This document shows positions 5,157-38,456 of a stretch of DNA of 64,000 bases, piece by piece. This stretch comes from Candidatus Thorarchaeota archaeon. GTDB taxonomy: Archaea; Asgardarchaeota; Thorarchaeia; Thorarchaeales; Thorarchaeaceae. The notes under the pieces were generated by a model. That model made no database searches. It saw nothing but the letters and a program-made list of their open reading frames with translations, and was not told where the DNA came from. The position numbers and the translations under genes are program-made. Within the stretch, counting starts at the first letter, position 1; each line of letters begins with the position of its first letter. The DNA lies in the NCBI GenBank assembly GCA_048884965.1, contig JBHLQH010000005.1, positions 1 to 64,000 on the forward strand. The letters run 5' to 3'.

Positions 5157-6302
5157 CTAGTACTTTACTCCTGATCCAGTATTTAGGACGACTACATCCT
5201 CATCATAGTCAATATCTCCCGATTCAACAAGATTCCTTAGTCCTGCCAGTCCAACCGCCGCTTCTGGACAGATGTCAAGACCTTCCATTTTCGCAGCGAT
5301 ACTTCTTGTTGATTCAATTTCAATCTCTGCAACTGCGACAGCACCACCGCCGGATCTCCTTAAAGCGCTTAAAATGAGTCTTCCTGCGAAGGGGTGCGGT
5401 ACCCTCAGTCCATATGCCTTCGTCTGTCCATTTTGCCAAGATTCGATGGTATCCGCATCTGTTTCAAAAGCTGTGACCACAGGAGCGCAACCTTCGCTTT
5501 GAGCTGCATACAATCTAGGTCGTTCCTTTCCTATCATCCCGATTGCTTCAAGCTCATCAAGTCCTTTCCATATTCCAATCAATGCTGTACCTCCCCCTGT
5601 GGGGCAGATAATAGCATCAGGCACTTCCCAATTGAGTTGTTCGGCAATCTCAAACGCTAGGGTCTTCTTACCTTCGACTCTATATGGTTCCTTAGTGGTT
5701 GAAAGATCGATCCAGTTCCCATTTTGCTGTCGCATCACGCTAGCACTATCTGAAATAGTACCTGGACTTGATGCAGTAATTGCCCCATACATCGTGCAAT
5801 CCTTGAAGAATTGTGATGGAGTATCCTCAGGCATGAAGATATGACAGGGCACCCCAGCTGCAGCAGAATATGCGCTCGCTGATACTGCAGCATTTCCTGC
5901 TGAAGGAAGCGCGAAGGCTGTGGCTCCAAGTTCGACATGCTTCGAGATTGCCGCACAGAGACCTCGATCCTTGAAGCTCAGAGTTGGATTTCGAGACTCG
6001 TCTTTGATCCTTAGACAACGTAGTCCTAAGTGAGTTCCCAGTCGCCGTGTTAGAATTAGAGGTGTCCATCCTTCTCCCAAACTCAGGATGAAAGACGGTG
6101 ACTTTACTGGTAGCAGCATGGAGTATCTCCACATAGAATTGTCATCGACAGGAAACTCTCCACAATCAACAGCTTCCGCAACTAGATTGAGATCATATAT
6201 GGCCAGTAGCGGAGAGCCACAGATACAGAAGGTTGCTGGACGGTCTGAAGAATAGTTCTTGCCGCACTCCGGACACTCCAGATGAGATATATATGAAATC
6301 AT
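5157..6302 (-). CDS. thrC: Threonine synthase (PLP fold type II)
   Basis: CPECG...CICG Zn site, SLGEGWTPL, NPTLSFKDRG, SAGNAA, EGKKT, PTGGG, NTGSG; ATG at 6302 preferred. Confidence 0.88.
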   Translation of the reverse strand: MISYISHLECPECGKNYSSDRPATFCICGSPLLAIYDLNLVAEAVDCGEFPVDDNSMWRYSMLLPVKSPSFILSLGEGWTPLILTRRLGTHLGLRCLRIKDESRNPTLSFKDRGLCAAISKHVELGATAFALPSAGNAAVSASAYSAAAGVPCHIFMPEDTPSQFFKDCTMYGAITASSPGTISDSASVMRQQNGNWIDLSTTKEPYRVEGKKTLAFEIAEQLNWEVPDAIICPTGGGTALIGIWKGLDELEAIGMIGKERPRLYAAQSEGCAPVVTAFETDADTIESWQNGQTKAYGLRVPHPFAGRLILSALRRSGGGAVAVAEIEIESTRSIAAKMEGLDICPEAAVGLAGLRNLVESGDIDYDEDVVVLNTGSGVKY

Positions 6303-32456: not shown

Positions 32457-32566
32457 CCAATCACCTATTCTTTCCTTGAATGATTATCCAATTTGGTGTA
32501 TCGTTAGTCAGCTTGGAAACATATATACACAAGGTACTTTCGCAATTGCTTCATCGGGTGAATGAT

Positions 32567-33961
32567 ATGGGGAAAAAATTTGTGCCCAGAGGCGTTATGC
32601 CTGCTCTTGTAACCCCCTTCACGAAGGATGGAGATCTTATAGAAGACAGCTATAAGGAAATAATCGACTATGTCATAAGCCGAGGAGCTACTGGCGTTGT
32701 TCCAGCAGGGACAACTGGCGAGTTCGTCTATATGCGAACAGAAGAGCGGAAGAAGCTTCTTCGTTTGACAGTGGACATCGTTGATGGTCGTGTTCCAATT
32801 GTAGCCGGTACGGGACAGAATAGCACAAAGGCTACTATCGCATTGACAAAGTATGCTGAAGATATAGGATGCGATGCAGCATTAGTTATCTCTCCTTTCT
32901 ACTTGAGACCCGGTGACAAAGGTTACTATGAGCACTACGAAAATGTTGCTAATCAAGGTAATTTGCCAATTATCCTCTATAATATACCTCAATGCACTCT
33001 TGGTGTTCTCACCTCATCAGTCGTTGAAGATTTGGCAGAGCTTGACAATGTCGTTGGAATCAAAGATAGTAGTGGAGTGATTCCACATACTGTTGAATTG
33101 ATTCAGAAACTAAAAGGAAAGATACCTGTCCTCATCGGTCATGATGAGTGCTTCTTATCTGCAGTTGCTGCTGGTGCACAAGCTGCAATTCTTGCATCTG
33201 CGAATATTATCCCCCATATATGGCTGGAGATCATGGAAAAAGTTCAGAGTGGTGATATCCCAAGAGCAATGGAACTTCAACACTCAGCTCAAACATTCGC
33301 CAGAATCGTAACTCGAAATGGAGGAGCTCCTCCTGTTAAGGCCGCTTTCAAGATGATGGGCATCAAAGCTGGCAAATCAAGAATGCCGCTAGATACGGGT
33401 GGCACATTATCAGTGGAGTTGAAGGATGAGATACGATTGGAACTCGAAACCCTTGGTCTTCTTGAGCCATTACATACTTCATCCATTGATACAAACATAA
33501 GTATTGAGAAGCTGCTTGCAGATGAGGGTTTTGAGGTTGGCTCAGAGGTTCTTCTGGGATCCGCTTCGTCTGAAAGGATTGCGGTAAGTGTCGCCGCTGG
33601 TCCCAAGAAGGGTGTCCTAGGTAGGGCTTTTGTGAAGCTACTTACTTCGCCTCGAATTGGGCACGAAGCACTTTCTGTTATTCTGGAACCAAATCTTGCC
33701 GTTAAACCGAGCAGCCTCATGGTACCAATGAAGACCATCACCTCTATGAGACAGGCCTCTTTCTTCTATGGTCCTGTTCAGTCAGGTGCTGCAAAGGCTT
33801 TTGCAGGAATCTTGGAGCATGGTAAAATCCCCACAAAATCGATTCTTGAAGATGTTGTAATCCTTGCTGTGGATGTCGACCTTCAGTCCCACAATAGAAG
33901 ACAAGTCACATCTGAAACAGAGCAAGTTGTGTCGCAAGCGCTGGAGGAAATCTGGAGGTAA
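32567..33961 (+). CDS. DapA/NanA-family class I aldolase fused to a Fae-like domain (copy A)
   Basis: GTTGE, LYNIP, GIKDSS; C-terminal GPKKG..GRAF...GH..L..ILEPNL.VKP...RQA..FYGPVQ. Confidence 0.88.
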   Translation: MGKKFVPRGVMPALVTPFTKDGDLIEDSYKEIIDYVISRGATGVVPAGTTGEFVYMRTEERKKLLRLTVDIVDGRVPIVAGTGQNSTKATIALTKYAEDIGCDAALVISPFYLRPGDKGYYEHYENVANQGNLPIILYNIPQCTLGVLTSSVVEDLAELDNVVGIKDSSGVIPHTVELIQKLKGKIPVLIGHDECFLSAVAAGAQAAILASANIIPHIWLEIMEKVQSGDIPRAMELQHSAQTFARIVTRNGGAPPVKAAFKMMGIKAGKSRMPLDTGGTLSVELKDEIRLELETLGLLEPLHTSSIDTNISIEKLLADEGFEVGSEVLLGSASSERIAVSVAAGPKKGVLGRAFVKLLTSPRIGHEALSVILEPNLAVKPSSLMVPMKTITSMRQASFFYGPVQSGAAKAFAGILEHGKIPTKSILEDVVILAVDVDLQSHNRRQVTSETEQVVSQALEEIWR

Positions 33962-33966
33962 ATAAG

Positions 33967-35442
33967 ATGAGTGAGAAATTCAAGTTCAAAGGTGTTTATC
34001 CCGCATTGGTAACGCCCTTCAATGAAGGTGGGATAGATGAAGCAAAATATCGTGTTCTCATCGATTACGTGATTAGATCTGGAGCTACCGGGATTGTTCC
34101 TTGTGGCACAACTGGTGAATTCACTTCAATGCGATTTGAGGAGAAAGTTGAGGCCATTCGAATTGCATGCGATGCCGCAAAAGGAAAGGTCCCAGTCCTT
34201 GCGGGAACTGGTGCTGCATATACTGGTGACGCAATAAAGATTACTAGAATGGCTGCAGAGTATGGAGCTGATGCAGCCTTAGTAGTTTCACCGTACTTCA
34301 TGAAACCCTCGAACAAAGAACTATTCGAGCACTACGAGAGAGTTGCCAACAATTCAGATATTCCGATCTTTCTCTACAATATCCCACAAGTCACTGGAGT
34401 GCCAATACACTGGACCGTTGTTGATGGTCTTCGTGAGATTGATGGCATTATCGGAATGAAAGACTCAAGTGGTGATTTGGTCAATTTGACTACCATCCTA
34501 GTGCGAAGACCGGATGATTTCCAAGTTGTTATTGGACATGATGAAGTTGCGTTACCTGCTTTGGCGAGTGGGTGTGATGGTGCAATTCTAGCAAGTGCAA
34601 ACATCTTCCCGAACAGATACATCAAAATGCAGAGTGCACTCGCGAATGGAGATTTGAAGGAAGCATTACTGGTACAACGAAGCATTCAGAAGACTGTACG
34701 AATCATTGTTAATCGGGGCGGTGGACTAGCAGTTAAGGTTGCTCTAAATATGATGGGAATCCCTGTCGGTCTGGCTAGGAAACCTCTTCTGAAAGGAGAT
34801 TCGATGTCCTATGAGGATATTGATGAACTAAGGACTTGCTTAGAGGACCTCCAGTTGATTCCTAAGGGTCCTGTGACATTCAAGATGGGCAAGAAGTCTG
34901 TCATTTCAGAAACCTATCCCAAAGCTGTAGGAATGGTCCCTAGTATTGTCGAGGATCTTACTTTATTGCATGGAGAGTCTCTTTGTGGTGCAGGAAATGA
35001 GGTGGCACATGTTGATCTTGTACTAGGAATTCGTGATGGTCCATTGAGTACTGCTTTGGAAGGCGCTGGTTCGATTCGCGAAGGCTATCATACTGCGGAG
35101 ATCATCAAGGATCTTCAGCCAACGACTGTCTTTGCACCAACCGTTACGATTACTCATGAGCACCACAAGAAGATGGTACATGATTTTGCAAAGAAGGCCG
35201 TCATTGATGCCGTGAAGAGAAGTATCACTGATGGAGTCATTCCCGATGAACTGGTTCCTGATATTCTCATTATGGCGAATGTCTTTGTGCATCCCAATGC
35301 CGTTAATCCTCGAAGAGTGCATATCAACAATTTTCGTGCTGTCCGTCATGCAATTAGACGCGCAATCGAAGGCAGATTCTCCACTGATGAGATAATTGCT
35401 AGGAAGGAATCTGCACGGCATCCGTTTGCATACAATCCATGA
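33967..35442 (+). CDS. DapA/NanA-family class I aldolase fused to a Fae domain (copy B)
   Basis: GTTGE, LYNIP, GMKDSS; C-terminal GESLCGAGNEVAHVDL...VFVHP...AIRRAIEG...SARHPF. Confidence 0.9.
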   Translation: MSEKFKFKGVYPALVTPFNEGGIDEAKYRVLIDYVIRSGATGIVPCGTTGEFTSMRFEEKVEAIRIACDAAKGKVPVLAGTGAAYTGDAIKITRMAAEYGADAALVVSPYFMKPSNKELFEHYERVANNSDIPIFLYNIPQVTGVPIHWTVVDGLREIDGIIGMKDSSGDLVNLTTILVRRPDDFQVVIGHDEVALPALASGCDGAILASANIFPNRYIKMQSALANGDLKEALLVQRSIQKTVRIIVNRGGGLAVKVALNMMGIPVGLARKPLLKGDSMSYEDIDELRTCLEDLQLIPKGPVTFKMGKKSVISETYPKAVGMVPSIVEDLTLLHGESLCGAGNEVAHVDLVLGIRDGPLSTALEGAGSIREGYHTAEIIKDLQPTTVFAPTVTITHEHHKKMVHDFAKKAVIDAVKRSITDGVIPDELVPDILIMANVFVHPNAVNPRRVHINNFRAVRHAIRRAIEGRFSTDEIIARKESARHPFAYNP

Positions 35443-37301: not shown

Positions 37302-38456
37302 GTGAGCGAGAATATGTCCAATTCCTCCAGAGTGATAAAACTCACACAAACACTTGTGTCGACGAATTCAGAAAGTCCTCCTGGGCAAGAGCGAGAGGTG
37401 GCGAACCTCCTCCGAGAGCATCTAGAACAATATGGCATTTCATGTACTTCTGTTGGACCCAATGACCGCCCAAATCTCATCTTCTCTACGAATGAAGATA
37501 CTCTTGGTCCAGTTGTATTTCACGGTCATATGGATACGGTTCCCGTTGGTGACTTGGAGCGGTGGAGTCATGATCCCTTCCTAGGCGAGATTCACGATGG
37601 TAAGTTGTACGGTCGAGGCGCATGTGATATGAAGGGACCATTGGCAGCCTTGACAGAGGCGATGATCCAGTATAATGACAAGAAGAATGATACTCCTTTT
37701 GTGCTATTGTGCACCTCTGATGAGGAAAGCGGGTGCTCTGGAGCTGAAGCAGTAGCTGATTCTGGAATCCTTTCTGGAGTCAAATACGGTGTGTGTGCTG
37801 AGCCTACTGATCTTCATGTATTGGTTGGCGAAAAGGGAATGCTATGGACAAAGGTGATTGCACACGGGAAAGCTGCGCATGGTTCCCGCCCGAGTGAAGG
37901 TGTTAATGCAATTCAACTGTGCTCTAAAGCAATTGAAGCGTTATCATCCCACGATTATCCCTATGAACTCAATGACTTAATGGGGATGATGTCATTGAAT
38001 GTTGGAATGATCAAAGGCGGCATAAAAATCAATGTCGTTCCAGATTATTGCGAAGCCAGCTTGGATATGAGAACAGTCAAAGGACAAAGCACAGAAAGGA
38101 TGCTGAATGAGATGAAACATGTCCTAAGAATTGCGGGTTTGGATGAATCTGTGTCAATCCAGTACATACATGGTAAACCTGCCGTTGTGACCCCAGAAGA
38201 TGCCACGATTGTCACTGTGACTACTAATGTTGTTGAATCAGTTGTTGGTAAGAAGCACCCTCTATCCGCTGCAACTTATGGCACGGACTGCTCAGTTCTC
38301 CAACCTCGTATTGGAATTCTGAATGTCATTTGTGGTCCCGGATCAATCGAACAGGCACATCAACCAGATGAATACATACAAGTAAGTCAATTGATGGAAT
38401 CAGTTGAAATCTATCTTAGAATAGCTGATAAAATCTCTGAGGTGGAATCTTCATGA
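37302..38456 (+). CDS. M20 family metallo-amidohydrolase (ArgE/DapE-like)
   Basis: GHMDTVP, GRGACDMKG, DEESG, EPT, AHGS, GPGS..QAHQPDE. Confidence 0.92.
   Translation: MSENMSNSSRVIKLTQTLVSTNSESPPGQEREVANLLREHLEQYGISCTSVGPNDRPNLIFSTNEDTLGPVVFHGHMDTVPVGDLERWSHDPFLGEIHDGKLYGRGACDMKGPLAALTEAMIQYNDKKNDTPFVLLCTSDEESGCSGAEAVADSGILSGVKYGVCAEPTDLHVLVGEKGMLWTKVIAHGKAAHGSRPSEGVNAIQLCSKAIEALSSHDYPYELNDLMGMMSLNVGMIKGGIKINVVPDYCEASLDMRTVKGQSTERMLNEMKHVLRIAGLDESVSIQYIHGKPAVVTPEDATIVTVTTNVVESVVGKKHPLSAATYGTDCSVLQPRIGILNVICGPGSIEQAHQPDEYIQVSQLMESVEIYLRIADKISEVESS

Follow-up and report, generated by a model that had tools for sequence, protein, structure and literature searches.

The window analysed here, a stretch of 64,000 nucleotides from a Thorarchaeota (Asgard) genome, carries two neighbouring genes on the same strand, A followed by B, with a gap of only 5 nt between them. 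Both code for fusions of an aldolase domain of the dihydrodipicolinate synthase (DHDPS) family (PF00701, N-terminal; E 1e-73 and 5e-74 for A and B, respectively) with a domain of the formaldehyde-activating enzyme (Fae; PF08714, C-terminal), and both carry the database name 4-hydroxy-tetrahydrodipicolinate synthase (DapA). According to profile matches, gene A (32567..33961, + strand; 464 aa) joins its aldolase to an A-type Fae half-domain and gene B (33967..35442, + strand; 491 aa) to a B-type one. Each of these half-domains lacks conserved Fae motifs that the other one retains, and it is this reciprocal loss, together with what it may mean for the function of the pair, that concerns us here.

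The reading frame of gene A is open from position 32480, but the database form begins at the ATG at 32567, which is preceded by GGGTGA and, about 40 nt away, by an AT-rich box. The TAA stop codon of A lies 5 nt upstream of the start of B, and a GGAGG sequence (33954..33958, + strand) lies within the final codons of A, at a distance of 8 nt from the start codon of B. This spacing and the location of GGAGG inside the 3′ end of A suggest that the translation of both genes is coupled. The genome (95.7% complete) has no Fae domain and no domain of the DHDPS family outside A and B. The PF08714 match of A (85.2 bits) covers only positions 10-135 of the profile and that of B (102.9 bits) covers positions 2-158 (cut-off 27), while the equivalog cut-off of TIGR03126 (118.05) is missed by both, with 78.4 bits for A and 117.5 for B.

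Reciprocal loss of Fae motifs

Both Fae domains were aligned to the Fae of Methylorubrum extorquens (1Y5Y), which is matched by B with an E value of 4.5e-21 and by A with one of 1e-9, and the coordinates of the motifs were then re-checked. The Fae half-domain of A (33554..33946, + strand) has ERIAVSV (33572-33592) at the site of the Fae motif EVAHIDL, VDVDL at the place of F-x-HP, and a chain that ends about 30 residues early at EEIWR, without the HPF tail. It thus has neither the hairpin with the catalytic His22, nor the F-x-HP strand, nor the C-terminal arm. On the other hand, A retains LSVILEPNLAVKP (33671-33709) and MRQASFFYGPVQ (33746-33781), in which the PNL loop and the helix cap are present as EPNL and YGPVQ, and its Gln405 is equivalent to Gln88 of Fae.

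The half-domain of B (34972..35427, + strand) has the opposite set of motifs. It retains the GE..G..EVAHVDL hairpin (EVAHVDL at 34999-35019), where His348 corresponds to His22, as well as VFVHP (35281-35295), NNFRA (35326-35340) and the C-terminal arm with ARHPFAYNP (35413-35439). By contrast, a deletion of 4-5 residues replaces the PNL loop (IKDLQP, 35104-35121), and HDFAK (35179-35193) stands for FGPAQ, so that GPAQ has become DFAK with Lys409 at the position of Gln88. As a consequence, the catalytic His is present in B and not in A (where it is found in 0% of 120 Thorarchaeota A clusters), the arm with A-x-H-P-F is present in B only, and the PNL loop and the FGPAQ cap are present in A only. 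The initial annotation, which compared the two copies with a Methylobacterium Fae consensus, had described A as lacking the GNEVAHID segment and the HPF tail but keeping the middle motifs, and B as keeping GNEVAHVD, VFVHP, N...AI.RA and SARHPF but lacking PNL and FGPAQ; the alignment with 1Y5Y bears out both descriptions in every detail.

The extent of this complementarity was measured with 120 A-type and 107 B-type Fae domains, each representing a protein cluster of Thorarchaeota, and with two reference sets, one of 29 canonical Fae domains taken from Fae-Hps genes of Asgard archaea and one of 10 DapA-Fae fusions that occur as single copies in other Asgard families. Among the columns conserved in the reference sets, retention by A shows a negative association with retention by B (one-sided Fisher test at three stringencies, p 0.017-0.03). 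Under the strictest cut-off, 25 of 26 positions survive in A or in B, and only 5 of them in both. When other phyla are added, 35 columns of Fae are near-invariant, and these are retained by B alone in 17 cases, by A alone in 7, by both in 5 and by neither in 6. The complementary pattern therefore exceeds what is expected by chance.

In the numbering of the canonical Asgard domains (to which 4 must be added to obtain that of M. extorquens, so that Q84 is Gln88 and H18 is His22), P54, N55, P60, G81, P82 and Q84 are conserved at 98-100% in A in every phylum, and G6, E7, A17, H18, F115, P118, A120, N130, H160 and P161 reach the same level in B. The regions that each partner has lost are variable inside its own clade. 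Since the retained motifs are so strongly conserved across phyla, purifying selection must be acting on both partners; neither half is decaying and the retained residues are not relics. The reciprocal loss reported by the initial annotation is both real and ancient.

Pairing, descent and spread of the split form

If the two half-domains depended on each other, their genes would be expected to occur together, a check that the initial annotation had proposed. Among 61 genomes of the Thorarchaeota family, A-type Fae was found in 53, B-type in 55 and both in 52. In 51 of these 52 genomes, A and B share both contig and strand, and A precedes B by about 1.45 kb; in the other one (G210) the two genes are on different contigs, B lying where its contig begins. 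Only one partner was found in four genomes (G161, G213, G093 and G214), and in all of them the gene is located at a contig end, so B is seen alone at contig ends only. In three Anaerolineae genomes no B adjoins A, but each of them has exactly one B-type gene on another contig, with the full B signature. Both partners are therefore present even where they are unlinked, the genes make up an obligate pair, and the frequent solitary B that would have counted against the initial annotation was not encountered.

A search of species-representative genomes with the alignment of A-type Fae gave 128 relatives. Those outside Thorarchaeota belong to Bathyarchaeia and Chloroflexota (Anaerolineae), and all of them have the same A/B motif pattern. 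In total, the pair is distributed over Thorarchaeota, two other Asgard families, Bathyarchaeia and Anaerolineae bacteria, and the split pattern is repeated in three phyla other than that of the window. Maximum likelihood applied to 27 full-length fusions groups the A-types of three Asgard families in one clade (support 100/99) and the B-types in another (100/98). Similarly, a tree of 41 sequences recovers A as one clade (Shimodaira-Hasegawa-like approximate likelihood ratio test, SH-aLRT, 100) and B as one clade (97), with sub-trees that mirror each other. As A and B are each monophyletic, the pair derives from a single old duplication, and the trees indicate that it has been inherited and transferred as a unit, apparently including transfers between archaea and bacteria.

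Single-copy DapA-like::Fae fusions whose Fae domain is complete occur widely, both in Bathyarchaeia and in other Asgard families. In many genomes a second Fae match, also full-length, lies in an open frame of some 500 aa, and L038-L047 and L133 are the examples that were sampled. These proteins, which are uncharacterised, resemble A and B in the order of their domains and in the subtype of their aldolase (YNIPQ-x-TG, without Arg138), and they belong to the same family in the tree. However, they keep every Fae motif, with EVAHID, EPNL, GPAQ, VFVHP and ARHPF in one chain coded by one gene, while the window has the duplicated, split form. The complete single-copy fusion is the ancestral form, and the split is a derived state rather than a necessity. 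It had also been suggested in the initial annotation that the split resolves a clash between the fivefold symmetry of Fae and the fourfold symmetry of DapA. This motive is not supported, because a DapA-like domain and a complete Fae domain can coexist in one homomeric single-copy protein, and such intact fusions are common.

Several other genes are found close to those of the fusions. A protein of about 315 aa, without sequence matches in Pfam, NCBIfam or PDB, adjoins DapA-Fae genes (L050:2340-3287; also L038, L039, L043, L044 and L049) and, in Chloroflexota, lies directly upstream of A (L120:952-1902, L123:1027-1977 and L126:873-1925). It occurs in five Asgard families as well as in Chloroflexota and is very well conserved, with phmmer scores of about 490-500 bits across the two domains of life. 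The ESM Atlas clusters nearest to it resemble U32 peptidases, and no copy was found in the genome of this window. Another protein, of about 427 aa and without Pfam or NCBIfam match, is encoded immediately 5′ of the single-copy fusions in three Asgard families (L040:6254-7534, L041, L042, L046 and L047), and a copy with 62% identity is located on another contig of the genome analysed here (G000:C17:50351-51613; L053). Finally, an M20-family peptidase (ArgE/DapE-like) is coded about 1.9 kb 3′ of B (window 37302-38456, + strand), and such peptidases are also found near the pair in the Thorarchaeota loci L033, L035 and L037 and in the Anaerolineales locus L131, and near the single-copy fusion of L043.

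The aldolase domains and the name DapA

The aldolase domain of A (32588..33394, + strand) contains GTTGEF, SPFY (with the equivalent of Tyr107), YNIPQC and the Schiff-base Lys in GIKDSSG, and that of B (33982..34815, + strand) contains GTTGEF, SPYF, YNIPQV and the Lys in GMKDSSG. Both thus keep the Thr pair, the Tyr of LYNIP and the Lys, which we take to be Thr44/45, Tyr133 and Lys161 in the numbering of E. coli DapA. The resemblance to true DapA (TIGR00674; 1DHP, 2EHH) also extends to the scores, since A (223.9 bits) and B (232.2 bits) are above the TIGR00674 cut-off (206.15), and to the DHDPS fold; a Foldseek search with the full model of B returned DHDPS chains only, with a TM-score of 0.93 against 2EHH (normalised to the target).

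In spite of these similarities, a true DapA (EC 4.3.3.7) had to be rejected. Arg138 of DHDPS binds aspartate semialdehyde, but the corresponding residue is Cys in A and Val in B, it is one or the other throughout the fusion family, and no Arg was seen at this position in any fusion examined. Additionally, a search for DapB (PF05173) gave no match in the 95.7%-complete genome, although an identical search was positive in 11 of 14 control genomes. Because of the missing Arg138 and the lack of a DapB match, the name 4-hydroxy-tetrahydrodipicolinate synthase is probably wrong for both A and B.

The position of Tyr107 was considered as a second split site, as Phe occupies it in 107 of 107 Thorarchaeota B clusters. 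It was rejected as firm evidence because the position is not reliably readable outside Thorarchaeota and because a Tyr-to-Phe mutant of DHDPS is reported to stay active. A further asymmetry within Thorarchaeota concerns the catalytic residues. The Lys motif is absent from 1 of 120 A clusters, and both Lys and Thr-Thr are lost in 4 of 107 B clusters, all of one genus. In this Thorarchaeota genus (g10; L033:4287-5735 and L035:2046-3524), B has GLSDASG and ASLGEF and its A partner keeps Lys and Thr-Thr, so that this B looks like a catalytically dead aldolase kept for its Fae half.

The conservation of the aldolase catalytic residues in A and B in most lineages is what would be expected if they were independent enzymes with different substrates, whose complementary Fae motifs resulted from coincidental drift after the duplication. 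Against this, the retained columns are negatively associated at the level given above, the same split is observed in four phyla, and the genes are strictly co-inherited or co-transferred and seem to be translationally coupled. We consequently regard such an independence of A and B as highly improbable.

A candidate Fae site across the A:B interface

Fae reportedly binds methylene-tetrahydromethanopterin (methylene-H4MPT) in a cleft between adjacent subunits of its homopentamer. His22 is said to be the acid catalyst, and both a flip of the Gln88 amide and an ordering of the C-terminal arm are reported to accompany the binding of the coenzyme. In our model, an ancestral DapA-like::Fae fusion would have been duplicated, and each copy would then have lost one side of the coenzyme cleft. 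A would provide the PNL loop and the GPxQ helix cap, including the Gln that reorients with methylene-H4MPT, while B would provide the Glu/His hairpin with His22, the F-x-HP strand, the Asn helix and the C-terminal arm, so that the full Fae site would be rebuilt only at an A:B contact. Each partner has an aldolase domain of the pyruvate type (class I), with its Schiff-base Lys, and this domain does not seem to be a DHDPS; the complex would therefore probably pass formaldehyde between a pterin carrier (H4MPT in the Thorarchaeon) and a 2-oxo acid. As both halves are under strong selection and both genes are always present, a composite A:B site is the simplest reading, and on balance we think it probable that A and B form an obligate heteromer with one Fae-type site across their interface. 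This reading is backed by the intact single-copy form, the single duplication, the strict pairing, the lack of any other Fae in the genome, the presence of Mch and Mtd, and the apparent coupling of their translation. The pentameric state of Fae is in line with it as well; Fae has been called “pentamer-forming” (preprint 10.1101/2023.10.23.563531), and the chain count of its structures (1Y5Y and 1Y60, with 10 chains over 2 entries) confirms a pentamer.

Predicted structures of the single chains bear on this reading to some extent. AlphaFold modelled B with a predicted local distance difference test score (pLDDT) of 91.4 and a predicted template modelling score (pTM) of 0.90, and A with values of 90.4 and 0.70. 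The last 8 residues of the B model have low pLDDT, as would be expected of an arm dependent on a partner or a ligand. The model of B also has an extra beta-hairpin between the aldolase and the Fae domain (window 34864-34920, residues 300-318), with a confident arrangement of the domains; in the model of A a short helix is found at that site and the arrangement is less certain.

Several observations weigh against a composite site. Perfect alternation of A and B is impossible in a ring of five, which means that an A:B complex must have a quaternary structure other than that of Fae. Furthermore, the partners are unequal. B keeps 22 of the 35 near-invariant positions and A only 12, and the equivalent of Gln88, which is invariant in the A proteins of Thorarchaeota, is retained in 89% of their B proteins as well; it is dispensable there, and the B of this window has Lys409 instead. 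It might be, then, that B binds the coenzyme differently, without A.

This inequality is also an argument for a different explanation, in which B alone is a working Fae with a remodelled pocket and the Fae-like domain of A is a non-catalytic partner for ligand binding, regulation or scaffolding, with no shared site. The score of B, 117.5 bits against the TIGR03126 cut-off of 118, is in agreement with it too. However, 29 of 29 canonical Fae domains and 9-10 of the 10 single-copy fusions have the PNL loop and the Gly-Pro within GPAQ, while no B has them in any of four phyla and in A they are conserved at 98-100% throughout. In addition, Gln at the Gln88 position falls to 0% in B outside Thorarchaeota, where it is found only in A, and the two genes always co-occur. 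We therefore find a self-sufficient B unlikely, if still the most serious of the alternatives.

The coenzyme context provides evidence in both directions. Mch and Mtd were found in the Thorarchaeon, from which it follows that methylene-H4MPT is available in this organism, and Mch is also present in a Bathyarchaeia genome that hosts the pair (G226). By contrast, no match to Mch (PF02289) was obtained in four pair-carrying Chloroflexota genomes, for which completeness is not reported (G222-G225, hosts of L120, L125, L127 and L132), and this again speaks against an H4MPT-dependent composite site. In Chloroflexota, such a site may have a ligand other than H4MPT, another pterin. The same four genomes favour the possibility that neither Fae-like domain carries out Fae chemistry, both being oligomerisation modules or binders of other ligands for a two-subunit aldolase, and so does a new conserved acidic motif, D-x-D-L, that the A proteins of Thorarchaeota have where Fae has F-x-HP. 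On the other side, the catalytic His of B and its Glu/Asp neighbours are conserved at 99-100%, the coenzyme-contact Gln is conserved at 100% in A, and Thorarchaeota genomes have no other Fae and yet have Mch and Mtd. We judge a complete absence of Fae chemistry to be quite improbable.

If the composite site is accepted, its product could be used in different ways. As Hps was not found above cut-off in the genome, the pair does not appear to serve the ribulose-monophosphate route. One idea is that A and B catalyse a hydroxymethyl transfer from methylene-H4MPT to pyruvate, in which formaldehyde from the composite Fae site and pyruvate would give 4-hydroxy-2-oxobutanoate, feeding homoserine and threonine in Thorarchaeota instead of the aspartate route. 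This chemistry is so far not known outside engineered pathways. There would be room for such a role because homoserine dehydrogenase (PF00742) was not found in the 95.7%-complete genome, but we consider the idea doubtful, since ThrB was not found in the genome either and the one ThrC match was barely above its cut-off. The window itself has, at 5166-6134 (- strand), a ThrC-like gene that scores 148.8 bits, short of the cut-off of its family.

Compared with known systems, the pair is closest in its signature to Fae itself (Methylorubrum extorquens; 1Y5Y/1Y60; PF08714; TIGR03126; EC 4.2.1.147), nearly all of which A and B jointly keep, including His22 and Gln88. Fae, however, is one 170-aa protein that forms a homopentamer with all motifs in each subunit, while here they are divided between two paralogous fusions. 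The archaeal bifunctional Fae-Hps (NF009833) likewise joins Fae to an aldolase-type enzyme acting on formaldehyde, an arrangement suggestive of a direct hand-over of formaldehyde, but its partner is hexulose-6-phosphate synthase, its Fae is N-terminal and complete, and the genome of the Thorarchaeon has neither Fae-Hps nor Hps. In agreement with this, the NF009833 matches cover only its Fae part (70.6 and 84.5 bits, against a cut-off of 274). As to DapA, its differences are the Cys or Val at Arg138 and the lack of a DapB match described above.

The principle of two paralogues that share an interface active site is already known from other enzymes. For instance, the deoxyhypusine synthase of trypanosomatids is a heteromer of paralogues with a shared active site at the interface, in which two impaired copies depend on each other. 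Its fold and chemistry are unrelated to those of A and B, whose partners are two-domain fusions and whose pair is spread across phyla and domains. In full-text literature searches, no description of a DapA-Fae fusion or of a split Fae was found.

If the site is indeed formed in trans, the pair would show, in a clean natural case, how an interface active site can degenerate in a complementary manner. A homo-oligomeric one-carbon (C1) enzyme would thereby have been turned into an obligate two-subunit enzyme, whose parts stayed together when they were transferred between archaea and bacteria. Hundreds of database entries now named 4-hydroxy-tetrahydrodipicolinate synthase would also have to be corrected. 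More generally, these fusions point, in Asgard archaea, Bathyarchaeia and Anaerolineae, to an uncharacterised connection of 2-oxo acids with the C1 pool that is bound to pterins.

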